Shown here: positions 33,363 to 58,711 of the stretch, in pieces
How positions within the stretch are numbered: the stretch's first letter is position 1
Layout: each line of letters begins with the position of its first letter
DNA from: a virus
Strand: one strand, 5' to 3'
IMG/VR virus record: IMGVR_UViG_3300032331_000813
Span: 20,466-84,465 of that record
Length of the DNA stretch: 64,000 bases
The notes under the pieces: model-generated
Databases searched by the model: none
Told to the model about the DNA's origin: nothing
Seen by the model: only the letters and a program-made list of their open reading frames with translations
Made by a program: the position numbers and the translations under genes

Positions 33363-33370
33363 TCTAAATA
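33363..33370 (+). promoter_or_regulatory. late-promoter-like motif heading the modification operon
   Basis: TCTAAATA followed by an AGGAG RBS and the ATG at 33386. Confidence 0.5.
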
Positions 33371-33385
33371 CTCATAGGAGTACAC

Positions 33386-33691
33386 ATGGATACAATTACA
33401 CTAATCACCGAAGCTAAAGCCCGCTTTAGTCACAATGCAGCCAAAGCATATTTAAAAGACAAATACGATAGTAAGTTTATTATTGCTGAACAATCTGGAC
33501 TTTGGCGTGCTAACTTAGAGACTATAAATTTTTTAAATTCATCTAGTGATGAATGGGTAATTTTAATTGACAAATTTGAAAACCCAGTAAAGGTTCTTAG
33601 AGCACCTCTATTAGATAAACTTGCCATAACTTATAAAACAGTTATGGAAGAATGGCATGCAGAATGGTCTGAACTAGAGAACAAGAGATGA
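33386..33691 (+). CDS. hypothetical protein (101 aa), first gene of the modification operon
   Basis: AGGAG RBS; ATGA overlap with the next gene. Confidence 0.7.
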   Translation: MDTITLITEAKARFSHNAAKAYLKDKYDSKFIIAEQSGLWRANLETINFLNSSSDEWVILIDKFENPVKVLRAPLLDKLAITYKTVMEEWHAEWSELENKR

Positions 33692-34497
33692 GTAAGGGCG
33701 TATTACTGTTTGCTTTCAATAGCCCAAAGTATAACTACTATGAAATGGCAGTAGCAACTGCCAAAAGAGTTAATCATTTTTTGGGTCTACCTGTAACAAT
33801 GGTCACTGATAGTGAATCATTGCCAGTCAAACAAACATATCAGTTTGATAATATTGTTATGGCACCCGCTGATAAAACTAATTTCAGAGATTGGGGTTTA
33901 TGGATTAACAAAGGTAGATACCGCGCATATCAGTTTAGTCCTTATGATGAAACTATCTTATTAGATACAGATTACATGATTAATTCAGATAAACTATTAA
34001 AGACTTTTGAATTACCTACTGATTTTTGCTGTCACGATACAACTAGTTTTTTGATGCATCCAGAATCTGCACAAGAAGCATTGAGTGCATATAGTTTTAA
34101 CACGTTATGGGCTACGGTAGTTATGTTTAGAAAAACTGGTCGTGCTAAACAAATATTTGAATGTTTAGAAATGATTCAAAATAATTTTGAACATTATGCA
34201 ACCATGCATGGATTCATATCGGCAACTTTTAGGAATGACTATGGATTATCTTTAGCCACTAGAATTGTAAATGGACATACGGTGTCTAAAAGGGATGTTA
34301 TACCGTGGAATCTATTACATGTAGGAAAAAATACAACTATGTATAGGAATAACGACAGTGAACTTAATACTGAGTATACTGTGTTATTTGACAATTGGAG
34401 TCGCGGGAAAGTTCGCAAAGAATATCTCACTATAAAAGATACTGATTTTCATGTGATGACTAAAGAAAACTTTATGGAGTTAATCACGTATGAATAA
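33688..34497 (+). CDS. GT-A-fold glycosyltransferase-like protein
   Basis: SPYDETILLDTD (DxD motif) and FRNDY motif; paralogous to the next gene. Confidence 0.6.
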   Translation: MSKGVLLFAFNSPKYNYYEMAVATAKRVNHFLGLPVTMVTDSESLPVKQTYQFDNIVMAPADKTNFRDWGLWINKGRYRAYQFSPYDETILLDTDYMINSDKLLKTFELPTDFCCHDTTSFLMHPESAQEALSAYSFNTLWATVVMFRKTGRAKQIFECLEMIQNNFEHYATMHGFISATFRNDYGLSLATRIVNGHTVSKRDVIPWNLLHVGKNTTMYRNNDSELNTEYTVLFDNWSRGKVRKEYLTIKDTDFHVMTKENFMELITYE

Positions 34498-35245
34498 AGG
34501 TTTTGTAATAATGGCACAAGATACTAATAAAGTAAGCTATACAAAATGTGCCGAAAAACTAAGTAAGAGTATTAAGCGAGTGATGCCTGATGCTAATGTA
34601 ACGATTATTACTACTGAAATGTTACCACATGGTGATTTAGCTCCTTACAACGATTGGAAATTAATCAATGACTGGCAAGTGTATGAAGCAAGTCCTTATG
34701 ATTACACTATTAAGCTAGAAGCTGATATGTATGTTCCTAGAAATATAGACCATTGGTGGGATGTATTAAAAGATAGGGACGTTGTAGTTTCATCTGCAAT
34801 ACGAGATTATAAGCAAGAAATATCAACTGTAAGATTGTATCGTAGATTTATTGATGATAACAAGTTACCTGATGTGTATAATGCTATAACCTATTTTAAG
34901 AAGTCACCTATCGCTGAAGAATTTTATAAATTAGTTAGAGAAATCTTTACAAATTGGGAGGAATATAAGAAAGTTTTACAATGTAACTATCGTGAATATG
35001 CTACCACTGATTGGGTATACGCTATTGCATGTCATATTATGGGCAAAGAGAAAACAACACTGCCCACATTTAATGAAATGACAATGATACATATGAAACA
35101 ATATATTGCCGGTACACCCACTGATGATTGGACAGACACACTATTATATGAATTCTTACCTGATCAAATTAGAATACAGACTATACCTCAGCAATATCCA
35201 TTTCACTATCATGTGAAAACTTTTTGTGATAAAATAACATTATGA
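34490..35245 (+). CDS. GT-A-fold glycosyltransferase-like protein (paralog, ExD variant)
   Basis: SPYDYTIKLEAD aligns with SPYDETILLDTD of the previous gene; similar N-terminus (KGFVIMA vs KGVLLFA). Confidence 0.55.
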   Translation: MNKGFVIMAQDTNKVSYTKCAEKLSKSIKRVMPDANVTIITTEMLPHGDLAPYNDWKLINDWQVYEASPYDYTIKLEADMYVPRNIDHWWDVLKDRDVVVSSAIRDYKQEISTVRLYRRFIDDNKLPDVYNAITYFKKSPIAEEFYKLVREIFTNWEEYKKVLQCNYREYATTDWVYAIACHIMGKEKTTLPTFNEMTMIHMKQYIAGTPTDDWTDTLLYEFLPDQIRIQTIPQQYPFHYHVKTFCDKITL

Positions 35246-35586
35246 AACATGAAGATGATTATGTTCTAATATGGGAAGCTCCTAAGTTAGAAGCACCTGA
35301 ATTTAGATTATACTATGATGACCATGGTGCAGTAATTTGCTATACTGGAGATAAATCAGTAGAAGGAAACTATATTGTAATTGATGCTCAAACTTTTGCT
35401 GAAGCTAGACCTGATGTGCGAGTAATAGATGGCAGAGTTTCAAGAGTGCAACCAAACGCAGTAGTCTATAAATTAATGCCTGATGTAGAAGAAGGTATAA
35501 CATGTCATCCAGACGATGTTAGTGTAATCGTTGACAGTAAAGAAAAACATACTAAATGGAAATTAAACATATATGAACTCCAATGA
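35242..35586 (+). CDS. hypothetical protein (114 aa)
   Basis: Overlaps both neighbours; no recognisable motif. Confidence 0.65.
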   Translation: MKHEDDYVLIWEAPKLEAPEFRLYYDDHGAVICYTGDKSVEGNYIVIDAQTFAEARPDVRVIDGRVSRVQPNAVVYKLMPDVEEGITCHPDDVSVIVDSKEKHTKWKLNIYELQ

Positions 35587-36529
35587 TATTATTGATGTTG
35601 CAGATTTAGATTGCATCTATCTAAGCTATGATGAGCCACAGAAGGAAGAGTTTTGGCTTAAGATTAAAAATATGATACCGTGGGCTAAACGTGTAGATGG
35701 AGTTAAAGGCTCTGACGCTGCACATAAAGCAGCAGGCAAAGCTAGCGACACGGAACGATTCATTCTAATTGATGGTGATAATATGCCCGAAGAAAGTTTC
35801 TTCAATATGCAATTAGATTTTAGCAATAAGGATTCTAAATTTAAATTGGCTCAGTTTCGTTGGAAAGCAGTTAACAGCATCAATGGATTACGTTATGGTA
35901 ATGGTGGTATGAGTAGTTGGACAAAGACTTATGTTAGTGAAATGAAAACCCACGAAAATCAAACTGAAGGGGATATAACACGTATAGCTGATTTCTGCAT
36001 GGATAGTAAAGATAATCTATATTGGGCTATGTATGATTGCTATTCAACTACGTACCCAAACTATACTCCGTTTCAAGCATGGCGTGCTGGATTCCGTGAA
36101 GGTGTAAAGATGTGTTTAGACCGCGGCGCCAAACCTACAGTAGACCAATTCAAAGAAACTGTTGCTAGCCGTAACTTAAACAACTTAACTATCTGGCATA
36201 ATGTGGGTGCAGATGTTGAAAATGGATTGTGGGCTATATACGGAGCGAGACTCGGTACATACATGACCATGCTAACTGATTGGGAACACACAGATGTTCA
36301 GTGGTTTGATAACTATATAATAATGTGGGAAGAACAAGAATATAATAGAGATCCAGAGCGTGAAGCAACATTATTAGGTGCAGCATTACATGATAAACTT
36401 GGATTGCCAATGTGTACTTTGGGAAAAGAACAAAGTAAGTTTTTTAAACGTCATTACAATGCCGACAAACACAACCTAGGTCCACTAGTAACAGAGATGG
36501 ATGTAATTCGCAAGATAGAAGGTTGGTAA
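35573..36529 (+). CDS. glycosyltransferase-like protein (GT-A-like)
   Basis: YLSYDEP...RVDGVKGSDAAHKAA...FILIDGDN (DxD) and QAWRAGFREGVK; homologous to the C-terminal domain of 53484..57857. Confidence 0.55.
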   Translation: MNSNDIIDVADLDCIYLSYDEPQKEEFWLKIKNMIPWAKRVDGVKGSDAAHKAAGKASDTERFILIDGDNMPEESFFNMQLDFSNKDSKFKLAQFRWKAVNSINGLRYGNGGMSSWTKTYVSEMKTHENQTEGDITRIADFCMDSKDNLYWAMYDCYSTTYPNYTPFQAWRAGFREGVKMCLDRGAKPTVDQFKETVASRNLNNLTIWHNVGADVENGLWAIYGARLGTYMTMLTDWEHTDVQWFDNYIIMWEEQEYNRDPEREATLLGAALHDKLGLPMCTLGKEQSKFFKRHYNADKHNLGPLVTEMDVIRKIEGW

Positions 36530-37923
36530 TGAGCAATGAACAACAACGAATAAAAGACATTAAGATCAAGATTGAAAATGAAGTAGGTTCTACTTTCTGT
36601 CTTGCCAAATGGCATCATGTCACGATGTATTTGCAATCAGGTGAAACACATAGTTGTTATCATCCCAAACCGCATAAAATCCCTTTAAGGGAACTTAAAG
36701 ACAATCCGTCTGCATTACATAATACTTTAGAAAAAAAGACTGAACGTAAGTTAATGCTTGAAGGGGAGAAACCTTCGGGATGCCAGTACTGCTGGAACAT
36801 TGAAGCAATGGGCCCAGACTATATTAGTGACCGTCATATTCGTAATGCATCTATCTTTACAGAAGAACGATATGAGCAAACTGTTAAGGGACCTTGGGAT
36901 CAGAATATTAACCCAGAATACTTAGAGATTAATTTTGGTAACGAATGTAACTTCAAATGCGGTTACTGTCACCCAAAGTATAGTACAAGTTTCTACAATG
37001 AAATAAAAACTAACGGTCCTGTTAATACAGTAAAGAATCATCGTTGCGACATTGATTGGATGAGACTATATCAGCGTGAAGAAGAAAATCCGTACGTTGA
37101 TGCATTTTGGCAATGGTGGCCTGAATTACGCAAGACATTGAACATCATGCGGGTTACAGGTGGCGAGCCTACTATGCACACTAGCACTTGGAAATTATTG
37201 AAAGAGATTGACCAAGACCCTATGCCTTGGTTAGAGTTGAACATCAATAGCAATTTAGGCACTAAAACTAGTCTAGTTGAAAAACTAAGTGATAGTGTAA
37301 AGACGCTATGTGATGATAAAAAGATTCGTGCTTTCAAGTTATTCACTAGCATGGATACATGGGGTCAACGTGCTGAATATATTCGCACTGGTTTAGATTT
37401 AGAATTATGGGAAAAAAATTTCCACACCTACTTAACTAGAACTGATAGCCCAATCACGTTTATGATTACCTTCAACATTTTTAGTGTGACTACCTTTAAG
37501 TCATTGCTAGAGAAAATGTTAGAATGGAGAAATCAATATGGATGGTATGATGATATAAAAAGCCATCGTGTTCGTTTTGATACACCTTATTTGCGTGATC
37601 CAATTCAATACGATATGAATATTCTTCCTAAAGAAGAATTCATGCCTTACATGCACGAATCATTAAAATTTATGGAAGACAACTTAGACGATAATGCTAG
37701 CAATAAGTTTACTACGGTAGAATATGAAAAGTTCAAGCGTGTAGTAGATTACATGGCAGAGACAGTTTATCCAGAAAACAAACTGGTTGAAGGTCGCAGA
37801 GATTTTTATAATTGGTTCAACGAATTAGATGAGCGTAGGGATACAGATATGTTATCTATTTTTCCAGAGTATATAAAGTTCTATAGATTATGTCAAGAAG
37901 CTAATCAGTTAAATCCATTATGA
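36529..37923 (+). CDS. radical SAM protein with N-terminal twitch/SPASM-like Cys domain
   Basis: CNFKCGYC (CX3CX2C) and GGEP; N-terminal FCLAKW...SCYH...GCQYC. Start moved to ATG 36529, which overlaps the previous TAA. Confidence 0.85.
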   Translation: MSNEQQRIKDIKIKIENEVGSTFCLAKWHHVTMYLQSGETHSCYHPKPHKIPLRELKDNPSALHNTLEKKTERKLMLEGEKPSGCQYCWNIEAMGPDYISDRHIRNASIFTEERYEQTVKGPWDQNINPEYLEINFGNECNFKCGYCHPKYSTSFYNEIKTNGPVNTVKNHRCDIDWMRLYQREEENPYVDAFWQWWPELRKTLNIMRVTGGEPTMHTSTWKLLKEIDQDPMPWLELNINSNLGTKTSLVEKLSDSVKTLCDDKKIRAFKLFTSMDTWGQRAEYIRTGLDLELWEKNFHTYLTRTDSPITFMITFNIFSVTTFKSLLEKMLEWRNQYGWYDDIKSHRVRFDTPYLRDPIQYDMNILPKEEFMPYMHESLKFMEDNLDDNASNKFTTVEYEKFKRVVDYMAETVYPENKLVEGRRDFYNWFNELDERRDTDMLSIFPEYIKFYRLCQEANQLNPL

Positions 37924-39152
37924 ATAAAAACTATAGATTAAATGAAAGTAAAACTTTTTGTATGGCACCTTGGGTGCATTTGCATACTAATCCCAGTGGA
38001 GTTGCTGCCCCGTGCTGCATAGCACAATCATGCTCAACCTTCGACGGTGTAGGAAATGCAAAATCTCAATCATTAATGGAGTTAGTAAATTCTCCTAAAA
38101 TGAAACAATTGCGTTTAGACATGCTAAACGATGTTAAAAATCCTGAATGTGCAACTTGTCACAATATAGAAGAATATGAAATACAAAGTAGTAGAGAGCA
38201 TTTAAATATAGATTGGGGAAAAACATACTATGATGAATGTATTGAAGATACACTATCAGATGGTTCTTTAACTGAATTTAAAATGCGATACTTTGATATC
38301 AGATTTAGTAATATTTGTAATTTCAAATGTAGGTCTTGTGGTTCCTCATTCAGTAGTCAATGGGAACAAGAAGATTTAAAAAATAACTTAGTATATGCTA
38401 GAACGATACCAAAAAATGATAATAAAAATTTCTTAAATGATGTAGTTGATCAAATTCAATATATGGATCAAGCATACTTTGCAGGCGGTGAGCCATTGAT
38501 AACAGAAGAACATTATATCTTGTTGGAAGAAATGATCAAACAAGATAAAACAAATATAAAATTACGGTATAATACTAACTTGAGTAATTTAAAGTTTAAA
38601 GACAAAGATTTACTTGGGTTGTGGAAGCATTTTAAAAATGAAATAATGATCTCAGCTAGTATAGACCACTATGGTGAACGTGCAGAATATATACGGCACG
38701 GAACTGATTGGGCAACAGTTGAAAATAATTTCAAAATAATACGTAAATTGCCATATCTGAAGTTACAAATGCATTCTGTATTGAGTGTGTTTAACATGTT
38801 AACTATGCATGAATTTTATCAATATTTGGTTGACAACCAGTTATATGATAAGAAAAATTACCCTAACACAATATATAATTTAGATATTCCCGAAATATTA
38901 TCATGTAATATATTGCCACCGGAATACAAAGAAAAAGGAAAGTATAGTTTAGAAATGGTTGTATCAATGCTATCAAAGCAAAAATTTAGAAAATATCATA
39001 TTGATATGATAAAAAACGTAATTCCAAAAGCGTTAGCTAATGACACATGGGAAGATAAGAAAGAAGAATTTAGAAACGAGATACATAGATTAGATAAAAT
39101 ACGAGGGGAAGATTTTAGTAAAACTTTTCCAGAACTAGCAGGATTACTATGA
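37920..39152 (+). CDS. twitch-domain radical SAM protein
   Basis: CNFKCRSC and FAGGEP; N-terminal FCMAPW...PCC...ECATC. Confidence 0.85.
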   Translation: MNKNYRLNESKTFCMAPWVHLHTNPSGVAAPCCIAQSCSTFDGVGNAKSQSLMELVNSPKMKQLRLDMLNDVKNPECATCHNIEEYEIQSSREHLNIDWGKTYYDECIEDTLSDGSLTEFKMRYFDIRFSNICNFKCRSCGSSFSSQWEQEDLKNNLVYARTIPKNDNKNFLNDVVDQIQYMDQAYFAGGEPLITEEHYILLEEMIKQDKTNIKLRYNTNLSNLKFKDKDLLGLWKHFKNEIMISASIDHYGERAEYIRHGTDWATVENNFKIIRKLPYLKLQMHSVLSVFNMLTMHEFYQYLVDNQLYDKKNYPNTIYNLDIPEILSCNILPPEYKEKGKYSLEMVVSMLSKQKFRKYHIDMIKNVIPKALANDTWEDKKEEFRNEIHRLDKIRGEDFSKTFPELAGLL

Positions 39153-40375: not shown

Positions 40376-40377
40376 AA

Positions 40378-41655: not shown

Positions 41656-42611
41656 TAGCTATTGAAGCCCCAGAACCATATTTGGCAATTACGTGGCAAG
41701 TTAACAATTACTGTAATTTTAAATGCAGTTATTGTAATCCGGGCAATTGGGGCGGGACTGATGTAAATGATGGCAACACCGATTTATACATCAAAAATTT
41801 AGAAACGATAATCAATCGTTACAAAGATGTAGGCTATAAAAACTTTAAGTTTTTCTTTAGTGGTGGAGAACCTACTGCATGGCGCAACTTCATACCAATT
41901 TGTGAATGGTTATACAATGAGTTACCACACGCTACATTAGCAGTTAATACAAACTTAAGTCGTCCATTGAAATGGTGGGAAAAGAATCATCACTTGTTTG
42001 ACGATGTGGTTGCTAGTTTTCACGTAGAGTTTGCAGATAAACAACGTTATGAAGAAAATAGTATATTCTTATGTGACAAGGTAAACTACCTAGCTACTAA
42101 AATGCTATTGCATGAAGAAAAGTTTTGGGAAGTAGTTGAGTTCGGTAAGCATTTGAAAACAGTAATGCCAAACTACTTCTTAGAGTGGACTCCGTTGTTT
42201 GATGAGATGAGTGTAAATGCAGGTCCATGGTCATATAAAGATTCAACTAAAACTCAATTTATAAATGACTGTACCTCTGAACATCATCAGTCTAAACCAA
42301 AACCAAACAAAAGAACAAATTTCACCGTCAGCTATAATAAATATGATGACAATCATACTGAAGTATGTAATAGTAATGAAGTAATTGTTGCTGGTAATAA
42401 TTTCTTTAAGGGTTGGCAATGTAATGTAGGTGATGCAATTTTTATTAATCCAACGGGAGAAATGAGTTTAGCAAGTTGCGGAATGGGCGGTAACGTAGGG
42501 CATATATTGAAAGATATAAAACGTGTTGGTCCCAAACAAATAATGTGTGCCAAAGAACATTGTCATTGTGGCACCGATATTATTATACCTAAGTATTTAA
42601 AAAATGAATAA
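41640..42611 (+). CDS. radical SAM protein with C-terminal Cys-rich (SPASM/twitch-like) domain
   Basis: CNFKCSYC and SGGEPT; C-terminal WQC...ASC...CAKEHCHCGTD. Confidence 0.85.
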   Translation: MGRKLIAIEAPEPYLAITWQVNNYCNFKCSYCNPGNWGGTDVNDGNTDLYIKNLETIINRYKDVGYKNFKFFFSGGEPTAWRNFIPICEWLYNELPHATLAVNTNLSRPLKWWEKNHHLFDDVVASFHVEFADKQRYEENSIFLCDKVNYLATKMLLHEEKFWEVVEFGKHLKTVMPNYFLEWTPLFDEMSVNAGPWSYKDSTKTQFINDCTSEHHQSKPKPNKRTNFTVSYNKYDDNHTEVCNSNEVIVAGNNFFKGWQCNVGDAIFINPTGEMSLASCGMGGNVGHILKDIKRVGPKQIMCAKEHCHCGTDIIIPKYLKNE

Positions 42612-43908: not shown

Positions 43909-43909
43909 A

Positions 43910-45536: not shown

Positions 45537-45556
45537 AACGGGTACTTTGTAAAGAT

Positions 45557-45564
45557 ATTAAATA
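45557..45564 (+). promoter_or_regulatory. late-promoter-like motif (ATTAAATA)
   Basis: Lies in the only sizeable gap inside the operon, upstream of a GAGGAG RBS and the TTG start at 45586. Confidence 0.45.
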
Positions 45565-45585
45565 GTCTATAGAGGAGACTATTTT

Positions 45586-49376: not shown

Positions 49377-51154
49377 GACAAAAATGGGCTAGAGGACATA
49401 TTGGTCCTTTCTGGGATAAAACAATGTTTAATAACTTGCCTTTTGTTAGGCAACCTGTGTTACAATCTGAAATAGACAAGTGGACCGAACTTGGATATAA
49501 TAATGTAAAAAATTTCACAGGTACATTATACGATAACAAAAATCCAATGCCCGAATGGGTAATTAATTTAGGTAACTTGTTTGATTTATCTAATCAAACA
49601 TATACGATTTACAAAATGGAAACATTAGAAATAATGCCCACGCATGTAGATCATTTCAGTACTTACATGAGATTGTTTGGAGCTGAATACAAAGATATCC
49701 GTAGAGTGTTGGTTATGTTAGAAGATTGGAAACCTGGGCATTATTTAGAGATTGACGGAGTTGGAATTACTAGTTGGATAGCAGGAGATTGGTTCATATG
49801 GGACAGTGATGTTCCGCATGCGGCTAGTAATATAGGTATAGAAGATAGATATACACTACAAATAACTGGAACATTAATTAGTGCGAAAAAAAGCATGTCG
49901 GACCTTCATTGGTTCAATATACCCAACATGCCAGAGAAGTTTGAAACATCTAGATTCCCCCACACCAAAGTAATAAAAGATAAATTTGTTGACGATACTC
50001 CTACTTACTTGTATATGTTAAATGGTAGAATCACTGAACTAGAAGAAATTCAACACGATGATGAAACTATCAATAAGTTAAACGAAACTGGTATTCATAT
50101 TTATTTAAATGAGCCATTGTGTAGTTACCACGTTGATGCAGAGGATTTGGTCTATGAAGGTCGAGTAGGTTCAAAACATAATATGATGTTTTACAGTGAG
50201 TTTGGTGAGCATATTAATCCATTCGAACTGAGAGCAGATGAGTTAGATAGTATTTTGATATATGCTAACAACAATAGATTAACTAATATTAAAGTTCACA
50301 CCGGGGATTATACGGTCGAACCTTACTATCCTGAATACACTTCTAGAATAAAATTATTAACTGACGATATATTCATAAAGTCGCAGTTTAACTTACGCCG
50401 TGTAGAAAAAGTTCATCTAACTCCTAATTTTAATAAAAAGTTCATCTGTTTAAATTGGCGTTATACTAGACATAGATTTATGACAGCAGCATTTTTAGCT
50501 CAAAAAAGTACATACATGACTTGGTATTTTAAAGCTGGTTGCACTATAATGAATCATGGCCCGTGGTTAAACTTTTTTTCTAAATGGGCTGAAGACTATC
50601 CAGAATATCAAACTGCTATAATGAAAGGTGTTATTCACTTGAATAATAACACACCTTTGAATTTAGATTTGAATATAAAAAATCCTACTATAATAACGCA
50701 TCATTATTTTGGAAAATTTTATCCAGACAACACGTTATTAAATGACATCATAAAACCTGGTAAAACTAACTATGATAATCTAAAAAAGTTTTATTCTGAT
50801 GTGTTTGTTGATATTGTTACTGAATCAAGATTTGCACAGCCGACTGCTAACTATAGTGAAAAAGCACTACAACCTATATTTTATAAGAAACCTTTCATTA
50901 TGGTAGGTCCTCCTAAAACACTAGAGTATATGAGAAGCATGGGATTTAAAACGTTTGGTGATTTTTGGGATGAGTCATATGATGATTGTCATAATCATGA
51001 AGATAGGTTAGCCATGATATTTAAGATTATACAACAGATAGACGAAAAATCAATAGACGAACTAAGAGCAATGTATAATGAAATGGCGTATATATTAGAA
51101 CACAACTTTGATATTGCTAATTCTATTATACCTACTGTGAGTGAATACGCATAA
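49373..51154 (+). CDS. fusion of an N-terminal 2OG-Fe(II)/cupin-like domain and a C-terminal 'TEK' (putative glycosyltransferase-like) domain
   Basis: PTHVDHF...PHAASNIG...RYTLQITG (HxD...H); C-terminal DIVTESRF...SEKALQP...KPFIMVG...GFKTFGDFWDESYD. ATG 49373 overlaps the previous TGA. Confidence 0.6.
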   Translation: MRQKWARGHIGPFWDKTMFNNLPFVRQPVLQSEIDKWTELGYNNVKNFTGTLYDNKNPMPEWVINLGNLFDLSNQTYTIYKMETLEIMPTHVDHFSTYMRLFGAEYKDIRRVLVMLEDWKPGHYLEIDGVGITSWIAGDWFIWDSDVPHAASNIGIEDRYTLQITGTLISAKKSMSDLHWFNIPNMPEKFETSRFPHTKVIKDKFVDDTPTYLYMLNGRITELEEIQHDDETINKLNETGIHIYLNEPLCSYHVDAEDLVYEGRVGSKHNMMFYSEFGEHINPFELRADELDSILIYANNNRLTNIKVHTGDYTVEPYYPEYTSRIKLLTDDIFIKSQFNLRRVEKVHLTPNFNKKFICLNWRYTRHRFMTAAFLAQKSTYMTWYFKAGCTIMNHGPWLNFFSKWAEDYPEYQTAIMKGVIHLNNNTPLNLDLNIKNPTIITHHYFGKFYPDNTLLNDIIKPGKTNYDNLKKFYSDVFVDIVTESRFAQPTANYSEKALQPIFYKKPFIMVGPPKTLEYMRSMGFKTFGDFWDESYDDCHNHEDRLAMIFKIIQQIDEKSIDELRAMYNEMAYILEHNFDIANSIIPTVSEYA

Positions 51155-51903
51155 TGAAAAAATTAATGCTAATTGCAGGATGTAGTCATACATCCGGATC
51201 TGAAATAAACGGTGAAGAAGATTCTCCTTATAACAGACAGAAATCATACGGTAATCAACTTGCTGAAATAATGGGATACACTCCTATAAATATCGCAGAA
51301 CCAGGATCAACAAACACCACTATAGCACGTAGTATATTGCAATGGTTTAGTGAAAAATATAATCCAAACGAAATGGAAGTGTTTGTTTCAGTGGGTTGGA
51401 CTGAAAGCACTAGAATGGAAATTCCATGGCATAGACCTACTTGGTACGCTGCACATTGTCCATACGGCGATTATGCAGCTACAACCAGTACTGATTATTT
51501 AAGAATTAATTCAGGATGGCCTGGCGCAGACCCTGAAGAAAAAGTGATAGTACCTGAATTTCAACGTTTTATGGCAAGTAATGAAAAATATTTAGAAATA
51601 CTAAGTGCTAACACTGTACTACAAATTCAATATTTTCTAAAATCTAAAAATGTTGATTATGTGATGTGTAACACAATGCATGTATTTTATCCAAGAGACA
51701 GGCATACTAGTTTTTATATGGAACAAATGGATTTGTCAAAGTATTATAACATGGAAAATTCAAGTCAATCATTTTATAGTAAGTATAAACAATTAGGTTT
51801 TGTAAATACAAAAGCAAAGTATTGGCATCACGATGAAGGTCCACATCGTTTATATGCAGAAGAACTTTCCGATTTCATAAAGGCTAATCATGTTCATAAT
51901 TGA
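51154..51903 (+). CDS. SGNH/GDSL-like protein (acyltransferase/esterase-like)
   Basis: N-terminal IAGCSHTSG, NIAEPGSTN, GWTESTR, and C-terminal WHH..GPH. Confidence 0.55.
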   Translation: MKKLMLIAGCSHTSGSEINGEEDSPYNRQKSYGNQLAEIMGYTPINIAEPGSTNTTIARSILQWFSEKYNPNEMEVFVSVGWTESTRMEIPWHRPTWYAAHCPYGDYAATTSTDYLRINSGWPGADPEEKVIVPEFQRFMASNEKYLEILSANTVLQIQYFLKSKNVDYVMCNTMHVFYPRDRHTSFYMEQMDLSKYYNMENSSQSFYSKYKQLGFVNTKAKYWHHDEGPHRLYAEELSDFIKANHVHN

Positions 51904-52000
51904 TTTTTTCAAAACTATCTATTATAAAATTTCTCGTGAATACAAGTATCGTAAACGTTTGAAAGAATTGCGTAAGCGTGATCCATTTATCTACAAATGA
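51890..52000 (+). CDS. 36-aa basic microprotein (MFIIDFFKTIYYKISREYKYRKRLKELRKRDPFIYK)
   Basis: Fills the gap exactly and overlaps both neighbours (ATGA coupling with the carbamoyltransferase); absent from the ORF track because of its size. Confidence 0.65.
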   Translation: MFIIDFFKTIYYKISREYKYRKRLKELRKRDPFIYK

Positions 52001-53475
52001 ATTACATAGGCATATCTGCTGGATTCCATGACGCTGCTGTTAGTGTAGTTGATGACCTTGGTAACATTTTGTTTGCTGGTCATAGCGAACGCTATAGTAA
52101 GATTAAGCACGACAAGAATATATGTGAAGAATTATTAATTGATGCCCTAAAACATATCAATTCAGAATACTTACAATATCATTATTATGAACGCCCTTGG
52201 CTAAAATCATTGCGTCAATTACGTAGTGGTGAAGGATTTAATTGGCCGTCATGGGAAAAGATTTTAGGTTCCGCTTACGACCAAATGGGCACACCCAAAA
52301 TACATACTCATAGTCACCATCAATGTCATGCCGCAGCAGGCTTTCAAACAAGTCCTTATCAAGATGCTACTGTTGTAGTAATTGATGCCATAGGAGAGTT
52401 TGATACTATTACTATATGGGATGCATGGTATGACAATGAAGGTAACGCAAAATATAAAAAATTATGGAGTTTAAAGTACCCGGATAGCATTGGACTATTC
52501 TATTCAGCAATGACTAAACGAGTTGGATTGCGTCCACTCGATGAAGAATACATTCTAATGGGTATGGCAGCATACGGAGAACCCAATCATATTGCTGATA
52601 TGATCAATGATTTAGTAGATAGAAAAGATATATTAACCTTTAAGCAGAATCTACACACTGGTGTTAGTGAAGATTTCTTAAAAGATGCTGATATAATGGA
52701 CATTGCTAGTAGCAGCCAACATTTGGTTGAATACATGATTACTAGAGTAATAAATAAAGCTAGAACAATGGGTCGCAGTAGAAATTTAGTATACGGCGGT
52801 GGGGTAGCATTGAACTGTTTAGCAAACAGATTGCTAGGGAACTTTTATGAAAATATTTGGATCATGCCTAACCCAGGTGATGCTGGCAATAGCCTCGGTG
52901 CGGCGTGTCTTGGGTACAATAGTAGAGTTAATTGGACTGATGCTTATCTTGGTCATAACATTCCTAGCAAGTATCCTGTTAACGGTTTACTTGATGTGTT
53001 ACTTACTGATAGCATTGTGGGTGTCGCATCAGGACGAGCAGAGTTCGGCCCGAGAGCATTGGGAAACCGTAGTCTCCTTGCAGACCCAAGAGGCAATGAG
53101 ATAAAAGATAAAGTAAATGAAATCAAACGCAGACAAAAATTTCGACCTTTTGCTCCGGTCATTCTTGAGGAGTATGCTCATCAGTATTTTGATATGCCTA
53201 AGCACTGGGATAATAGTAGGTATATGCAAGTCATCAGCCGTTGTAGGTCTCCTGAGTTATTTCCTGCTATTGTTCACTATGACTGGACTAGCCGTGTTCA
53301 GACTGTGCCGAAAGATGGATCAGGAATTAGAGAACTGTTAGAGAAATGGTATGTAATGACTGAATGTCCAATGTTATTGAATACTAGTTTAAACATACGC
53401 GGCGAGCCAATGGTGAACAATCGTGATGATGCTGACAGATTCGAAAAACTGTACGGGGTAAAAGTTTTGTCATAA
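51997..53475 (+). CDS. carbamoyltransferase, NodU/CmcH/TobZ family
   Basis: GISAGFHDAA, HHQCHAAA, VIDAIGE, GGVALNC, GDAG, EFGPRALGNRSLLADP, RPFAP and LLNTSLN. Confidence 0.93.
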   Translation: MNYIGISAGFHDAAVSVVDDLGNILFAGHSERYSKIKHDKNICEELLIDALKHINSEYLQYHYYERPWLKSLRQLRSGEGFNWPSWEKILGSAYDQMGTPKIHTHSHHQCHAAAGFQTSPYQDATVVVIDAIGEFDTITIWDAWYDNEGNAKYKKLWSLKYPDSIGLFYSAMTKRVGLRPLDEEYILMGMAAYGEPNHIADMINDLVDRKDILTFKQNLHTGVSEDFLKDADIMDIASSSQHLVEYMITRVINKARTMGRSRNLVYGGGVALNCLANRLLGNFYENIWIMPNPGDAGNSLGAACLGYNSRVNWTDAYLGHNIPSKYPVNGLLDVLLTDSIVGVASGRAEFGPRALGNRSLLADPRGNEIKDKVNEIKRRQKFRPFAPVILEEYAHQYFDMPKHWDNSRYMQVISRCRSPELFPAIVHYDWTSRVQTVPKDGSGIRELLEKWYVMTECPMLLNTSLNIRGEPMVNNRDDADRFEKLYGVKVLS

Positions 53476-53483
53476 GTAGATAC

Positions 53484-56400
53484 ATGCGAGATGTATTTTA
53501 TTACGGTAATAAACCCAACGTTCACCCAAGAGAAAAATTTGCAACTTCAATAGAAGATGCTAGACAACAATGCACCACTGAACATTTTTGGATAATCAAC
53601 GAATTTTGTGATTATCGAAATTTTGATTGGGAATGGGAATTTGATTTCTTACCTGACCATGAAGTTTGGGCAGAAGAACACAATAATGTATGGCCTAGTG
53701 TTCATCAAAAAGATAGTGGTACATGGTTGTGTCCACAAACAAAAAGTGAAATAATAATATATCGTGCTGATGTTGAACCATTACCTAGAAAAAAAATAAT
53801 TTCTAATGAATGGAAATTTATAGATAAAGTAGATACAACTAAATTTGACTTTAGCTGGCACCCTGACCCTTCATCACCTCCATACGTATATGTATGGGGA
53901 AATAAATGGAATCCAGTAGAATTGCAACCGGCACTAGAGTATCATACTCCTAATGCTACTACTAGAAAATATATAGATCAAGTAGTTGAATTGTTACCTA
54001 ATGAGTATTTTGTAGAAATACAACCAATTGACAAGTCTAAGTTTGACATGACTTGGAGACCCAATCCACTCGATCCTCCCTTCATTTACAAGTGGGGAAA
54101 TAAATTTAATCCAGTTGAAATGGAAACTGCATTAGAATATCATGCGCCCGGCGCAACTGAAGTAAAATACATGAAAACTCCTATTGAGATTATCACGCAA
54201 TGGGACAGTTGGGAAAACGTTGAAAATATAGATAAAGAAAGTTTTGATTGGACATGGAGACCTGACCCAAGAGAACCTCCCTTCATATATCATTTTGGTA
54301 CTCAATGGCAAAAGACAAATGGTCCTAAATACACAGTTAAAGGCGCCACTAAAATTAAGTATATAAGCGAAATAAAAGCTAAAATAATGCCTAATAGAGA
54401 AAATTGGACCGTTCCTGATAATATAGATGTTACTGGATTTGACTTTAGCTGGCATCCCGATGCAACGAGTCCTCCTTACACATATAGATTTCCTACTCAA
54501 TGGGCGATGAGTGGTGGACCTACTTACACAGTACCAGGCGCTACTGAAGTAAAATATGTTGACGTAATAAAAGCAAAAGCATTACCCGATAAAACCAATT
54601 GGGATGTACCATCTTATATTGATAGTGACAGTTTTGACTTTAGCTGGCATCCATATATAGAAGATGAACCATTCATATATCAGTTTGGTACTCAATGGCA
54701 AAAGACAGGTGGTCCTCAGTATGTGCATCCTAACATACCTAGAATGGCATCAGGTAAGCCTATTGGTCAAGTAAAATACATTGATACACGTATTATAAAA
54801 GCAAAACGCTTACCTAGTAAAAAAGGATTCATGCCACCTGAAAACTTTAAAGAAATAGTAGACTTTGATTATTCATGGCACCCAGACGATACAGAACCAC
54901 CATACATATATCATTTTGGTACACAGCATCAAAAGACAGGTGGACCAAGATACTTTGTTGAAGGTGCGACTGAAATAAAATATGTAGATAAACCAAGAGC
55001 CGCAGTTCTTCCAAAAGATAATACTATCAATTGGGAAATACCAAATAACATAGATGTTAGTGAGTTTGATTTTAGTTGGCACCCTGATGAGAGAGATGAA
55101 CCATATATCTATCAATTTGGCACACAACATCAAAAGACAGGTGGACCAAAGTACATTGTCCCTAAAGCTACTGAAATAAAATATGTAGAAAATTCAAAAG
55201 CAAAAAGTTTATCTAATAAAGAAAATTGGGTTATGCCAGATGATTTAGATATTGCAGACTTTGATTTTAGTTGGCACCCTGACGATACAGAAGAACCTTT
55301 CTTGTATCATTTTGGTACACAATGGTCAGAACATGGAGGACCTACGTATGTAAGACCGGGTGCAATTGTCGGTGTAACTGCCACTAAGTATATTAATCCT
55401 AGAGTACTCAAGGCGACTGTAGCGCCTGATAAAAAGTATTGGATAATACCAGATGATATAGACAGCGATAGTTTTGACTTTAGCTGGCATCCTCATCCAA
55501 ATAGTCCACCGTTCATATATCAATTTGGTACACAGTGGCAAAAGACAGGTGGACCTCAGTATATACATCCTGATATAACTAAAACGGCAACAGGAAAACC
55601 CAATGGTCAAATTAGTTATGTTGATACACGAGTTCTCTCATCTACTAAACTGCCATTAAAAACATATTGGGTGATTCCTGATAATATTGATGTTAGTGAA
55701 TTTGATTTTAGTTGGCATCCTGATGACACAAGTCCACCTACTACCTATCAGTTTGGTACATTATTAGATAAAGAAGATGGTCCTAAATATGTTCATCCTA
55801 ACACTATGGATGATGTAGTTGTATATCTAGAAAGAATCGCACCTAAGCAAGTTATAGTAGAGACAGTAGTTCATACTGATTTTCCTAAATATATCGTAAC
55901 TACCACACTTGAAGATTTGATTGAAGAACATTCTAACGAATTGTTTTGGGCATTAAATCCTGATTTAGACTATAGTGAGTTTGATTTTAATTGGAGACCT
56001 AGTATTGAACAGTCGCAATATCTACATGCGTTTGGCTCACCTGAGAATATCAATACTCAAACATACTTTGTTAATGCAGCAGCATGGTTAAAAGGATTTA
56101 AAGATATCAATTATGTTGAAGATAAAACACTCAATGTAAAAGTTAATATTGATATGTTCTTTGTTGACAGAAGCAATAATGAATCACAGTCACGGTTTGA
56201 AAAACTAAAGAATAAATTCCCTAACATACAAAAAACTCGCTACTTAAATAGTTGGGTAGAAACTATCAATCGTTGTATTAATCGTGCTAGTAGTAATTTG
56301 TGTTGGATATTGAATAGTGAGTTAGACTATAGTGATTTTGATTTCAACTATTATCCTAATCCATGGCAGATGAAAATGGTACATGTGTTTGGTACTCAAT

Positions 56401-57857
56401 GGAGTCACTGGGGCACTACCTATATGGTTAACCGAGATACGTTTGCTGATGATACAAAATTCATAAAGATAATTGAACATCTTTCTAATCTTAACTTTGT
56501 TAAGGATAGGAGAGCAAAGGCAACTAATATTCTATATGATACTATCTACATAGACCATGGCAATAAAGATATGTCTAGATTACAAAAAGAAGGAAAATTA
56601 GTAATAAAATATCAGAACAGTTATATCACTACATTCCAAAAGATGTTAGATATGCTACCTATTAAAAAAGAACATTATGTATGGGTAGTTAGTTCTATAT
56701 GTGATTATGCCGAATTTGATTTTACTTATATATGCGATCCTTTTGCAAAAGATCAATTGCATGTTTTCCCTAGTGATAGACAAAAATTTGGTGATACGTT
56801 CTTAGTTGATGTTAACAAATTACGTGAACTAATTGAAGATATGAACTCATTAGAAGATTACGTAAAAATTAACTATAATCAAAATCAACGTGTAACTAGA
56901 CTTACTCCACCTGTTATAGTTACTGAAGGGGATACACATTTATCTAGCATAAACACAGAGTTTAATTTTCCTTATGCAGTATTTGTTACAGAAGATAATA
57001 GAAATATAAATGTAGTTGACAGTGAACCAATGAGTTTATGGAGTCCTGAATCTAAAAACATTCAAGTAACCAGTATAGGTGGAACACGAATTGTGGTACC
57101 CAAAGAAGCTAAAGATTTCATAGAGACACAGTTATATGATTATCCTTACATTAAATCTAATAATAGATTATCGCAATCAATTCCATTGGACATTGTATTC
57201 TTTAGTAACGGTGAAGGTGCAGCAGATAAAAATTATGCACATTTATTAGAGATAACAAAAGGATTACCAAACAGACTAACAAGAGTAGATGGGGTGCAAG
57301 GTAGAGTAAACAGTCAACATGCGGCTGCTAATGCTAGTAAAACATCATGGTACTTCTTAGTTAATGGGAAACTGAAAGTAAGTCAAAAATTTGACTTCAA
57401 TTGGCAACCCGATAGATTACAATTACCTAAGCATTATATATTTCAAGCTACTAATCCAGTCAATGGATTAAAGTATGGACATCAAGCTATTGTTGCTAAT
57501 AACAAACGATTGACTTTAGAAAATTATGGTAGCGGATTAGATTTTACTATGGATAGTGACCATGAGATTGTCAAAATAAACAGTGGTATGGCAATATTCA
57601 ATACTAGTGAATGGGACACATGGCGTACTGCGTTCCGTGAATGCATTAAACTTAAAGCATCGGGCACTGAAGAAAATAAAGAACGATTAGAATTTTGGTT
57701 AACAGTTGCTATGGGTGACTTTGCCCAATATAGTATCGAAGGTGCTCAAGATGCTGTAGAATACTATGAAGAAGTTAATGGTGACTTTAATAAACTAAGA
57801 TTAAGCTATGACTGGGCTTGGTTAAAAACTTACTATGAGACTAAATATACGTTATGA
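53484..57857 (+). CDS. 1457-aa repeat protein: ten tandem FDFSWHP...FGTQW..GGP.Y units, degenerate GT-like units, and a C-terminal glycosyltransferase-like domain
   Basis: Repeats are visible in the translation. The C-terminal RVDGVQGRVNSQHAAA...NPVNGLKYG...WRTAFRECIKL matches 35573..36529. Confidence 0.75.
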   Translation: MRDVFYYGNKPNVHPREKFATSIEDARQQCTTEHFWIINEFCDYRNFDWEWEFDFLPDHEVWAEEHNNVWPSVHQKDSGTWLCPQTKSEIIIYRADVEPLPRKKIISNEWKFIDKVDTTKFDFSWHPDPSSPPYVYVWGNKWNPVELQPALEYHTPNATTRKYIDQVVELLPNEYFVEIQPIDKSKFDMTWRPNPLDPPFIYKWGNKFNPVEMETALEYHAPGATEVKYMKTPIEIITQWDSWENVENIDKESFDWTWRPDPREPPFIYHFGTQWQKTNGPKYTVKGATKIKYISEIKAKIMPNRENWTVPDNIDVTGFDFSWHPDATSPPYTYRFPTQWAMSGGPTYTVPGATEVKYVDVIKAKALPDKTNWDVPSYIDSDSFDFSWHPYIEDEPFIYQFGTQWQKTGGPQYVHPNIPRMASGKPIGQVKYIDTRIIKAKRLPSKKGFMPPENFKEIVDFDYSWHPDDTEPPYIYHFGTQHQKTGGPRYFVEGATEIKYVDKPRAAVLPKDNTINWEIPNNIDVSEFDFSWHPDERDEPYIYQFGTQHQKTGGPKYIVPKATEIKYVENSKAKSLSNKENWVMPDDLDIADFDFSWHPDDTEEPFLYHFGTQWSEHGGPTYVRPGAIVGVTATKYINPRVLKATVAPDKKYWIIPDDIDSDSFDFSWHPHPNSPPFIYQFGTQWQKTGGPQYIHPDITKTATGKPNGQISYVDTRVLSSTKLPLKTYWVIPDNIDVSEFDFSWHPDDTSPPTTYQFGTLLDKEDGPKYVHPNTMDDVVVYLERIAPKQVIVETVVHTDFPKYIVTTTLEDLIEEHSNELFWALNPDLDYSEFDFNWRPSIEQSQYLHAFGSPENINTQTYFVNAAAWLKGFKDINYVEDKTLNVKVNIDMFFVDRSNNESQSRFEKLKNKFPNIQKTRYLNSWVETINRCINRASSNLCWILNSELDYSDFDFNYYPNPWQMKMVHVFGTQWSHWGTTYMVNRDTFADDTKFIKIIEHLSNLNFVKDRRAKATNILYDTIYIDHGNKDMSRLQKEGKLVIKYQNSYITTFQKMLDMLPIKKEHYVWVVSSICDYAEFDFTYICDPFAKDQLHVFPSDRQKFGDTFLVDVNKLRELIEDMNSLEDYVKINYNQNQRVTRLTPPVIVTEGDTHLSSINTEFNFPYAVFVTEDNRNINVVDSEPMSLWSPESKNIQVTSIGGTRIVVPKEAKDFIETQLYDYPYIKSNNRLSQSIPLDIVFFSNGEGAADKNYAHLLEITKGLPNRLTRVDGVQGRVNSQHAAANASKTSWYFLVNGKLKVSQKFDFNWQPDRLQLPKHYIFQATNPVNGLKYGHQAIVANNKRLTLENYGSGLDFTMDSDHEIVKINSGMAIFNTSEWDTWRTAFRECIKLKASGTEENKERLEFWLTVAMGDFAQYSIEGAQDAVEYYEEVNGDFNKLRLSYDWAWLKTYYETKYTL
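53844..55790 (+). repeat. ten tandem ~65-78 aa coding repeats
   Basis: Recurring DNA cores TTTGA(C/T)TTTAG(C/T)TGGCA(C/T)CC and CAAAAGACAGGTGG(A/T)CC. Confidence 0.85.
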
Positions 57858-58045
57858 TAGTTAAACTTGCAAACAAAATTGGACAAGCACATGGAAAGTT
57901 TTTCATGTGGTTAGGACACAAAGCCGAAACTAATCCATGGTGGGCGGTCGCATTGACTGTCTGGGCATTGTATGAAATTGGTGAACATATTGCAGGGCCA
58001 GTAATGGCAATCATGTATGCTACGGGTCATCTAGTTATTCAATAA
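57854..58045 (+). CDS. small putative membrane protein (63 aa)
   Basis: Hydrophobic segment NPWWAVALTVWALYEIG; ATGA overlap with the previous gene. Confidence 0.6.
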   Translation: MIVKLANKIGQAHGKFFMWLGHKAETNPWWAVALTVWALYEIGEHIAGPVMAIMYATGHLVIQ

Positions 58046-58708: not shown

Positions 58709-58711
58709 TAG

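Follow-up and report, generated by a model that had tools for sequence, protein, structure and literature searches.

Why should a phage carry, directly behind its tail-fiber genes, a long run of genes for sugar and radical chemistry, and on what do their products act? The locus that raises this question is the block at positions 33386–57857 (~24 kb) of a 64-kb window, the whole stretch of DNA analyzed here, which corresponds to bases 20466–84465 of the 84,465-bp IMG/VR viral contig IMGVR_UViG_3300032331_000813 (CheckV completeness ~15%). The source is an uncultured freshwater giant phage, a Rak2/Atu_ph07-like jumbo phage known from a contig fragment. We tentatively read the block as a late cytoplasmic module that builds or edits a glycan and decorates fiber or baseplate proteins, situated in the baseplate-fiber operon of a jumbo-phage clade. 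Gene content, intact catalytic motifs, and a deep conservation of both gene order and linkage to fiber and baseplate genes are direct observations. The block contains 20 open reading frames (ORFs) of at least 100 aa, all on the + strand and most overlapping by 4–20 nt, together with an extra, unlisted 36-aa ORF at 51890–52000, in agreement with a preliminary description of this DNA that had given the same coordinates and about 21 mostly overlapping genes. Genes are named gNNNNN after the start position of the ORF within the window.

Conservation of the block was traced through its radical S-adenosylmethionine (rSAM) enzymes, a family with more than 6,000 metagenomic proteins at E ≤ 1e-10. At the same threshold, 166 IMG/VR contigs had a match, and 80 loci of these were examined by tblastn with all window proteins. 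More than 40 viral contigs share a fixed order: fiber protein, fiber-like protein, two GT8-like glycosyltransferases (GTs), a GT-A enzyme, at least five N-terminal-twitch rSAMs, an SGNH-like protein, a short peptide, a variable slot, a carbamoyltransferase, a short-chain dehydrogenase/reductase (SDR), and a GT-A-like protein devoid of DxD. Protein identity among these relatives is 25–60%, and the recurrence of one gene order in more than 40 independent viral contigs indicates that the block is more than a chance assembly. The closest metagenomic homologues include P0001 (87%) and P0120 (on a 483-kb contig). Near-identical DNA is present in the riverine metagenome of an independent study (56% of sampled words), and none of 50,697 phage records was matched by the whole block in a megablast search.

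The block follows three fiber-type genes directly, and the structural genes upstream of it are as follows:

6053–29323 (+): 7,756-aa ORF between a baseplate wedge gene and the fiber genes; 21% Ser+Thr
30142–31389 (+): g30142, tail-fiber protein, 415 aa, 24% Ser+Thr, with a C-terminal intramolecular-chaperone (IMC) autocleavage domain (Pfam Peptidase_G2 IMC, residues 271–340, 25.0 bits, cut-off 25); phrog_14394 virion structural protein
31399–32358 and 32381–33337 (+): two paralogous Ser/Thr-rich fiber-like proteins; 27–28% Ser+Thr
33364–33370 (+): CTAAATA, a late-type promoter-like motif 22 nt ahead of the module's first gene; its proposed function is taken from the T4 late promoter consensus

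The N- and C-terminal parts of g30142 are kept just ahead of the module in 37 related loci, and homologues of the fiber-like proteins occur in 23–39 related loci, always between the fiber gene and the first GT gene. The Ser+Thr content of the neighboring fibers is 24–28%, vs. 7–15% in the enzymes of the block. The placement directly behind tail genes and late-type motifs had been noted in the preliminary description, and both observations stand. ATAAATA or TTAAATA variants of the motif lie 23–29 nt before the baseplate genes g2154 and g2656, the fiber genes g30142 and g32381, and the B12-binding rSAM gene g45586. Overall, 13 of 36 copies of [ACT]TAAATA lie within 45 nt of a start, an enrichment that AT-rich intergenic sequence may inflate. 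The exact T4 late promoter TATAAATA was tried as a candidate and rejected, with 5 copies vs. 15 expected and no enrichment; sigma-70-like promoters and terminators were at or below shuffle expectation, and no terminator-like site was found on the + strand inside the block.

A further proposal of the preliminary description, that linkage to the baseplate genes be sought in related genomes, gave a positive result: the same wedge gene is found upstream of the module in relatives, and a cultured phage has the same layout. Baseplate wedge genes lie upstream of the block in the window, where g2656 matches phrog_10646 (E 7e-250) and shares 32–34% identity with the wedge proteins of Atu_ph07, 121Q, and Rak2-type jumbo phages. 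The same wedge protein occurs ~16–21 kb upstream of the module in four related genomes (G001, G003, G004, and G005). Long relatives of 139–197 kb, with a T4-type major capsid protein and 38–39% identity in the wedge, have an estimated completeness of 39–55%, which implies genomes of roughly 350 kb. The closest relatives, L124 and L143 (contigs C1 and C3 of G005; 183 and 148 kb), come from a metagenome-assembled genome (MAG) of Haliscomenobacter sp. and carry a T4-type capsid gene, a Rak2-type wedge gene, and the whole module, with identities of 53–54% (wedge), 60–62% (GT-A), and 63–64% (carbamoyltransferase). By these genes, they are evidently phage DNA binned with a bacterium, and the binning may be either a hint of a Bacteroidota host or an artifact. 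Two further loci, L111 (Rickettsiales MAG) and L146 (Verrucomicrobia MAG), look alike, as jumbo-phage contigs in bacterial MAGs.

The cultured phage with this layout is the Ralstonia phage RsoM2USA, which has it in reduced form. Its fiber-linked site reads:

RsoM2USA site 1: ORF362, wedge protein; ORF361, giant virion protein; ORF358, SDR; ORF356, virion protein; ORF355, fiber protein; ORF354, small ORF
RsoM2USA site 1, continued: ORF353 and ORF352, GT8-like; ORF351, small ORF; ORF350, GT-A; ORF349, N-terminal-twitch rSAM; ORF348, GT-A-like

ORF361 (2,541 aa, detected in virions) is the counterpart of the 7,756-aa ORF of the window, and ORF355 matches the fiber-like proteins. Module ORFs at a second site of this phage were annotated as hypothetical, and its virions have been described by Coomassie bands and protein identities only (PMC8504454). 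A literature search found no paper characterizing the module.

Which enzymes, then, does the block encode? Its GT-like proteins and two proteins with a shared C-terminal domain are:

33688–34497 (+): g33688, GT8-like paralog 1, 269 aa, with an invariant DxD (D93, D95) in the family alignment; 44 related loci; RsoM2USA ORF353
34490–35245 (+): g34490, GT8-like paralog 2, 251 aa; phrog_1903; 46 loci; RsoM2USA ORF352
35573–36529 (+): g35573, GT-A-fold glycosyltransferase, 318 aa, conserved DGD; 38–62% identical in 50 loci; RsoM2USA ORF350
42604–43908 (+): g42604, 434 aa, possibly GT-B/GT10-like, with a C-terminal domain (~300–430) in common with g49331
49331–51154 (+): g49331, fusion protein of 607 aa, with an N-terminal 166-aa module and a C-terminal domain of the g42604 type (by sequence comparison)
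53484–57857 (+): g53484, 1457 aa, with a C-terminal GT-A-like domain in which DxD is replaced (FLVNGK); C-terminal homologues close the module in 45 loci

Of the three to six GT-like proteins originally proposed, four GT-like domains were sustained (two GT8-like, one GT-A with DxD, and one GT-A-like without it) and two further candidates were not. The families of g33688 and g34490 are paralogous (hhalign probability 99.6%), and neither protein has a Pfam match. The family profile of g34490 matches glycogenin-1 (GT8; E 6e-4) over the first ~100 positions only, with EAD at the DxD-aligned position and a nearly invariant D79; that of g33688 found no match in the PDB. In g35573, D67 and D69 of the DGD motif are nearly invariant in the family alignment. 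Its AlphaFold2 (AF2) model (predicted local distance difference test, pLDDT, 86.5) resembles GT2-type enzymes, including A64R of chlorovirus PBCV-1 and SunS/ThuS (Foldseek E 5e-4, probability 0.9–1.0; VIA Z 8–9.5 over residues 4–171). Since the GT-A fold is common to nucleotidyltransferases too, glycosyltransferase activity of g35573 is presumptive. The C-terminus of g53484 is paralogous to g35573, with FLVNGK in place of ILIDGD. DxD is also gone in its aquatic relatives, which keep a Lys there (VFAKS or VFPKL); RsoM2USA ORF348, unlike g53484, retains VDGDN. With Lys in place of a metal-binding Asp, the domain could be a metal-independent transferase or a non-catalytic sugar-binding domain. 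No internal repeats were found in g53484 by BLASTP self-comparison (1e-3).

The domain shared by g42604 and g49331 (E...TEK...PF..G, with invariant E, EK, PF, and G positions) is a weak lead toward GT10. In an atlas search, g42604 fell with virus-only unnamed clusters (0.97), and the nearest named cluster, GT10, stood at 0.80, below the level that counts. A profile of the domain against the PDB and a Pfam scan of 14 members gave no match. A QdtB match of an earlier profile was rejected because that alignment had been contaminated by four DegT ORFs, and the clean alignment had no PDB or Pfam match. As a whole, g49331 has no family, PDB, or usable atlas match. In three relatives (L084, L078, and L060; ~10–12.2 kb) the order is mini-DegT, a free-standing ORF of 166 aa, and amidinotransferase; in the window, the 166-aa module is fused to g49331 and the order is changed. 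Single-sequence PDB searches of g35573, g49331, and the rSAM g37920 gave nothing useful.

The rSAM proteins form the most numerous group of the block:

36523–37923 (+): g36523, N-terminal-twitch rSAM, 466 aa, of a type found in every version of the module; NF033640 309.1 bits; homologues RsoM2USA ORF349 and ORF202
37920–39152 (+): g37920, N-terminal-twitch rSAM; NF033640 373.4 bits
39149–40375 (+): g39149, N-terminal-twitch rSAM; NF033640 367.5 bits
40378–41655 (+): g40378, N-terminal-twitch rSAM; NF033640 357.7 bits
41640–42611 (+): g41640, rSAM core without twitch, 323 aa; Pfam Radical_SAM 28.7 bits, just under the cut-off; NF033640 partial, 31.8 bits (non-member)
45586–47835 (+): g45586, B12-binding rSAM, 749 aa; B12-binding 2e-10, Radical_SAM 1e-14

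Five twitch/SPASM rSAMs had been expected. Four belong to NCBIfam NF033640 (N_Twi_rSAM; 309–373 bits against a curated whole-protein cut-off of 170 bits), and the fifth, g41640, proved to be an rSAM core lacking the twitch. In the twitch proteins, a Pfam SPASM match (residues 14–83) precedes Radical_SAM (124–296). In an alignment of 56 sequences, C14, C32, C77, C80, and C133/C137/C140 of the CX3CX2C motif are invariant, and C33 is nearly so. NF033640 is a sequence family without an assigned reaction, and we found no characterized member by sequence in the PDB or in the literature. The AF2 model of g37920 (pLDDT 92.5) has nearest structures that are tied at Z 10–12, with anSME, SuiB, and CteB acting on peptides and BlsE, DesII, and viperin on sugar nucleotides or nucleotides; SkfB is also a structural neighbor, and the best Foldseek match is viperin. 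Among bacterial species representatives, NF033640 has 338 matches and is common in Bdellovibrionota, Bacteroidota, and Elusimicrobia. When bacterial neighborhoods were checked for a glycan or ribosomally synthesized and post-translationally modified peptide (RiPP) context, they held mostly unrelated housekeeping genes. The Cys-rich N-terminal twitch/SPASM-like domain and the CX3CX2C core are shared by the four window proteins and the bacterial family. The phage version differs in forming tandem arrays of 4–9 paralogs in a fiber-linked operon, whereas bacterial members are mostly single and outside glycan loci.

The predicted B12 rSAM is indeed present as g45586, for which no NCBIfam equivalog reaches its cut-off. 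A homologue with 65% identity occurs in the Halobacteriovorax MAG locus L150, where positions 9986–17954 encode an N-terminal-twitch rSAM, an rSAM like g41640, another twitch rSAM, an unknown protein, an rSAM of the g36523 type, and a B12-rSAM. The pair g40378-g41640 is adjacent too in the Bdellovibrionota loci L150, L134, and L161. The similarity of the L150 sub-block suggests recent exchange between predatory bacteria and jumbo phages.

The remaining enzymes belong to families that tailor sugars:

43910–44887 (+): g43910, NAD-dependent nucleoside diphosphate (NDP)-sugar epimerase/dehydratase (SDR); Epimerase 4e-42, GDP_Man_Dehyd 6e-23
44880–45536 (+): g44880, FkbM-family methyltransferase; PF05050 3e-13, TIGR01444 63.7 bits (cut-off 37.7)
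47819–48409 (+): g47819, mini DegT-like protein, 196 aa, with the pyridoxal phosphate lysine motif kept (SFQYKKH); PF01041 5e-17, covering profile positions 164–248 and a short N-terminal piece only
48390–49376 (+): g48390, StrB1-like amidinotransferase; PDB 1bwd, E 5e-64, residues 6–325 vs. 6–339
51997–53475 (+): g51997, NodU/TobZ-type carbamoyltransferase, 492 aa; Carbam_trans_C 4e-47, Carbam_trans_N 3e-38

Here the preliminary assignments of an NDP-sugar epimerase (Pfam Epimerase), an FkbM methyltransferase (TIGR01444 above cut-off), an amidinotransferase, and a carbamoyltransferase (both Carbam_trans domains) were borne out. The best NCBIfam match of g43910 is GDP-L-fucose synthase (108 bits, far under cut-off). 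The amidinotransferase g48390 has no Pfam match and is a full-length homologue of StrB1 with an intact triad, its catalytic Asp (CPRD), His (HLDSTI), and Cys (FHCVTLD) aligning with the StrB1 motifs. The carbamoyltransferase is 45% identical to RsoM2USA ORF199 and 47–64% identical to those of related loci. The DegT aminotransferase is present with its Lys motif and lacks the full-length architecture. A canonical DegT enzyme of fold-type I has about 360–400 aa in a large and a small domain; in an alignment with full-length relatives from the PDB, g47819 lacks the equivalent of residues ~89–179 and the C-terminal small domain. Since the ~195-aa form is kept in seven other contigs (56–59% identity), the mini-DegT is not a pseudogene remnant.

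In related modules, the distal half is a variable slot. Among 108 ORFs from 19 of them, Pfam recognized rSAMs (23), carbamoyltransferases (11), SDRs (7), full-length DegT proteins (6; best E 5e-97), several methyltransferases, adenosine phosphosulfate (APS) kinases (2), and FkbM (1). By family, this is the vocabulary of nucleotide-sugar tailoring, and it fits a role in sugar tailoring. The accessory set of the window (FkbM, B12-rSAM, mini-DegT, amidinotransferase, and g49331) is rare, with the amidinotransferase in ~8 of 80 related loci. A 2-oxoglutarate-Fe(II)-like domain, also proposed earlier, was found in none of the ORFs of the block by profile searches.

Another feature of the block is a short ORF next to the SGNH-like gene:

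51154–51903 (+): g51154, SGNH-like (DUF6071-like) protein, 249 aa; PF19547 21.8 bits, below the cut-off of 27
51890–52000 (+): 36-aa ORF for an amphipathic basic peptide ending in DPFIYK, which fills the 93-nt gap before the carbamoyltransferase gene

The SGNH-like assignment holds at the level of motifs (GGCSFTFG, GG.GNS, and D..H), in which G9-C10-S11, G51, N54, D227, and H230 are nearly invariant; the Pfam score is below cut-off. A hidden Markov model built for this family found it in 46 viral loci and in 0 of 74 bacterial NF033640 loci. The start of the peptide ORF overlaps the stop of g51154, and its stop overlaps the ATG of g51997. A six-frame regex search located the peptide in 43 loci (42 related loci and the window), always on the module strand and inside the module, and in none of the 74 bacterial NF033640 loci. 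The homologues have 33–36 aa; residues D31–K36 (DPFIYK) never vary, and the basic stretch before them hardly does. In 36 copies, each of the six DPFIYK residues is encoded by 2–3 synonymous codons with zero replacements, and this restriction to synonymous changes indicates a translated gene under strong constraint. In 36 of the 39 loci holding both, the distance from the peptide to the SGNH-like gene is at most 22 nt; the downstream neighbor of the peptide varies, being the carbamoyltransferase in the window and other ORFs of ~110–290 aa elsewhere. In RsoM2USA, a 36-aa ORF (L006, 19029–19136) takes up exactly the 108 nt between ORF201 and ORF200, where no gene is annotated. One phage subgroup (L066, L032, and L085) has the module without the peptide, and the peptide matches no NCBIfam family. 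A predicted complex of the peptide, the SGNH-like protein, and g36523 scored 0.00, which, with controls not run, is evidence neither way. The preliminary description had seen no transporter, regulator, or precursor peptide in the block: profile scans agree as to exporters and regulators, and the 36-aa ORF corrects the part on the peptide.

Two small conserved proteins complete the block, and the features that follow it are listed with them:

33386–33691 (+): g33386, 101 aa, no family match; a homologue in L124 (33% identity) occupies the equivalent position
35242–35586 (+): g35242, 114 aa, overlapping the GT-A gene, no family match; homologues in L124 and L143 (37% identity) occupy the equivalent position
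57854–58045 (+): 63-aa ORF overlapping the end of g53484, with a hydrophobic C-terminal half
58697–59096 (+): permuted transfer-messenger RNA (tmRNA), tag peptide ANDELYSLAA (ARAGORN), directly after the module

The 63-aa ORF has no homologue in the related loci examined. After the tmRNA, a run of host-like auxiliary genes at 59326–63311 (+) encodes a cytochrome c (PF00034), a calcineurin-like phosphoesterase, and a GT2 glycosyltransferase, as well as a Gram-negative porin (Porin_4, 4e-19) and a PstS-like phosphate-binding protein (PBP_like_2, 2e-38). Porins are unusual in phages, and the family of this one points to a Gram-negative host. The position of the block between the fiber genes and the tmRNA and auxiliary genes indicates that it closes the baseplate-fiber operon of a jumbo phage.

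How might these proteins work together? In the scheme that we propose, whose chemical steps we infer from family membership together with the late timing and the acceptor, the SDR would make keto- or epimerized sugar nucleotides, which the mini-DegT and the StrB1-like amidinotransferase could convert from keto to amino to guanidino forms. FkbM and the B12-rSAM would methylate, so that the accessory set as a whole would introduce amino, guanidino, and C- or O-methyl groups, and the carbamoyltransferase would add a carbamoyl group. The four to five N-terminal-twitch rSAMs may carry out further C-H chemistry on sugars (oxidation, epimerization, or deoxygenation). Two GT8-like enzymes and one GT-A enzyme would then move the sugars onto an acceptor made simultaneously. 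A crude hydropathy scan found no transmembrane segments in the proteins of the block, and Pfam/NCBIfam scans of the block found no initiating phosphoglycosyltransferase, lipid-carrier transferase, flippase, polymerase, or exporter; an acceptor that is located in the cytoplasm and available late is thus expected. The likeliest acceptors would be the Ser/Thr-rich fibers encoded directly upstream, a transfer suggested by their position, or the giant baseplate protein. GT genes embedded in a structural operon, a mark of phage virion glycosylation, are what the block displays.

Several observations weigh against this scheme. A pathway acting on sugars alone gives no role to the invariant peptide. 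In the structural comparison, the modeled rSAM fold is equally close to peptide-modifying enzymes (anSME, SuiB, CteB) and to enzymes that modify nucleotides or sugars (viperin, BlsE, DesII). Bacterial NF033640 genes are often alone or beside PhyH dioxygenases or other rSAMs, and glycosyltransferases are not enriched around them. Among the typical transferases of the lipopolysaccharide (LPS) core, too, are GT8 enzymes. Finally, the module of RsoM2USA is split, its SGNH-like protein, rSAM, peptide, and carbamoyltransferase being encoded ~90 kb from the fiber-linked GT-rSAM part, which indicates that not all of the module need be fiber-linked.

The main rival is a peptide-centered pathway, in which the 33–36-aa peptide with its DPFIYK core is the real substrate or primer; we regard it as unlikely. 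It could be a RiPP-like or cofactor-like precursor, whose Phe-Ile-Tyr-Lys end is acted on by the rSAMs, the amidinotransferase, and the carbamoyltransferase and is then glycosylated, by a logic like that of PqqA or MftA/MftF, or else a Tyr-bearing primer on which glycogenin-like GT8 enzymes begin a glycan. A real peptide, kept by strong purifying selection (six invariant residues in 36 copies), speaks for such a role, as do its translational coupling to the SGNH-like gene upstream and to a variable tailoring enzyme downstream and the fact that in RsoM2USA it travels with the rSAM, SGNH-like, and carbamoyltransferase genes, away from the fiber genes. Twitch/SPASM rSAMs are typical peptide maturases, with SuiB, CteB, SkfB, and anSME among the structural neighbors found here, and GT8 includes the Tyr-self-glucosylating glycogenin. 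Yet the rSAM family does not depend on the peptide, given that all 74 bacterial NF033640 loci lack both it and the SGNH-like gene, and the L066/L032/L085 subgroup keeps the module without it. An encoded short precursor-like ORF with a conserved core is what a RiPP locus should have; a RiPP recognition element (RRE), PqqD, a peptidase, and an ABC exporter had no match in the block (Pfam/NCBIfam), and the lack of a known precursor family, of an RRE, and of a protease and exporter counts against this pathway. The 4–16 rSAMs also appear out of proportion to a six-residue core, and the basic amphipathic body fits a small scaffold or membrane-binding subunit as well. In a version that joins both substrates, and that we consider doubtful, the peptide would be a hub: GT8 enzymes would glycosylate its Tyr, and the rSAMs, amidinotransferase, and carbamoyltransferase would edit C-terminal residues and sugars, yielding a glyco-peptide or peptide-derived cofactor built into, or acting on, the fiber apparatus.

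If the product were instead destined for the host envelope, the LPS core, O-chain, or another surface glycan would be altered during infection, blocking superinfection or the re-adsorption of progeny to lysing cells. We think this rather improbable. GT8 enzymes are classically associated with the LPS core, the peptide, being basic and amphipathic, could anchor soluble enzymes at the inner side of the membrane, and the window carries envelope-related auxiliary genes (porin, PstS, GT2); moreover, GT8-type transferases and radical SAM cassettes beside pelagimyophage tail fibers have been read as serving O-chain modification (PMC7029224). On the other hand, the block encodes neither membrane proteins nor a flippase, ligase, or lipid-carrier transferase; its core enzymes are conserved in a clade with very diverse hosts (Ralstonia, freshwater, and marine bacteria); and the strict co-location and common late-type motif with fiber genes in distant phages fit a virion function better, exclusion being expected early. 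Release of a diffusible aminoglycoside-like or guanidino-sugar compound, synthesis of a modified nucleotide, or hypermodification of phage DNA seems very unlikely. A StrB1-like amidinotransferase, a carbamoyltransferase, an aminotransferase, and a B12-rSAM do co-occur in aminoglycoside pathways, and the best Foldseek match of the rSAM, viperin, acts on CTP. A similar trio in cyanophage S-SCSM2R was called "antibiotic synthesis genes" (PMC12801897). However, profile searches found no cyclitol synthase, kinase/phosphatase set, exporter, self-resistance gene, or match to an aminoglycoside equivalog, and genes for nucleotide metabolism or for DNA glycosyltransferases are missing from the block and its surroundings. 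In addition, the amidinotransferase/mini-DegT/B12 sub-cluster is accessory (~8 of 80 loci), whereas the fiber-linked GT-rSAM core is universal.

Comparison with known systems bears on the same choice. The preliminary description had ascribed aminoglycoside-like biosynthetic logic to the block, and this survives as an analogy only. There is common ground with StrB1, StrS/BtrR, TobZ, GenK, and BtrN in the full-length StrB1 homologue g48390 and in the DegT, carbamoyltransferase, and B12-rSAM families. However, no cyclitol-forming enzyme (2-deoxy-scyllo-inosose synthase or inositol-phosphate route) or BtrN-type dehydrogenase was matched by Pfam or NCBIfam in the 20 ORFs, no GenK-type or other equivalog reached its cut-off (the best score of the AprD4 model was 22.7 bits vs. 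a cut-off of 500), and the DegT protein is truncated. Profile scans of the block and its flanks found no exporter or self-resistance gene, and the setting is a virion structural operon rather than a producer cluster with export and resistance. Since the enzymes that define such a cluster are missing and none of the equivalog cut-offs is reached, the module, as judged from its genes, is not an aminoglycoside cluster. Its likeness to PqqA/PqqE and the mycofactocin system MftA/MftC/MftF lies in a short peptide with a conserved Tyr-containing C-terminal core among rSAM/SPASM-type enzymes and GTs; it differs in that no homology to these peptides or their maturases and no RRE were detected, and in that the peptide is coupled to the SGNH-like gene, not to an rSAM gene.

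By logic, the closest systems appear to be mycobacteriophage virion glycosylation and the fibril clusters of giant viruses. Glycosylation of mycobacteriophage virions by adjacent GT genes has been demonstrated (Freeman, 2023, Cell Host Microbe, as cited in PMC12619734). There, as proposed here, phage GT genes adjoin structural genes and virion proteins are the acceptors; as far as that account goes, those systems have few GTs and lack an rSAM array, an amidinotransferase or carbamoyltransferase, and a conserved peptide, and the comparison is one of gene layout, not GT homology, with glycosylation by the module itself being putative. The same source describes four core GT orthogroups in moraphages (PMC12619734), a lineage to which we do not assign this phage. 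Virus-encoded clusters for fibril glycosylation in Megavirinae (PMC10117803) and in chlorovirus PBCV-1 (A64R, PDB 2p6w) likewise place rare amino and methyl sugars on virion fibers independently of the host, by means of SDRs, DegT-type aminotransferases, and methyltransferases. They belong to eukaryotic viruses and lack radical SAM enzymes, and the resemblance of A64R to g35573 is that of a generic GT-A fold (Z 8.0). The host recognition cluster of pelagimyophages and cyanomyophages (PMC7029224) is also a variable island beside tail-fiber genes with GT8-type transferases and "radical SAM cassettes". These were mentioned descriptively and are compared here by description, in phages of ~150 kb vs. 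the ~350-kb jumbo relatives with their Rak2-type wedge. The rSAM array, the guanidino and carbamoyl chemistry, and the invariant peptide would set the module apart from its closest counterparts.

The module is widespread, costs phages 15–40 kb of genome, and is built around an enzyme family without a known reaction and a peptide left unannotated in the GenBank record of RsoM2USA, whose reduced version makes the question directly testable. If the peptide is a hub, the module would provide the first reaction for NF033640 and a new class of viral natural product; if it is a substrate, it would represent new viral RiPP-like chemistry. If, as we tentatively favor, the product decorates the fibers, phages would be able to remodel the chemistry of their own receptor-binding apparatus by means of guanidino-, carbamoyl-, and methyl-sugars, and this would bear on host range, resistance to proteases and grazers, and persistence in the environment.

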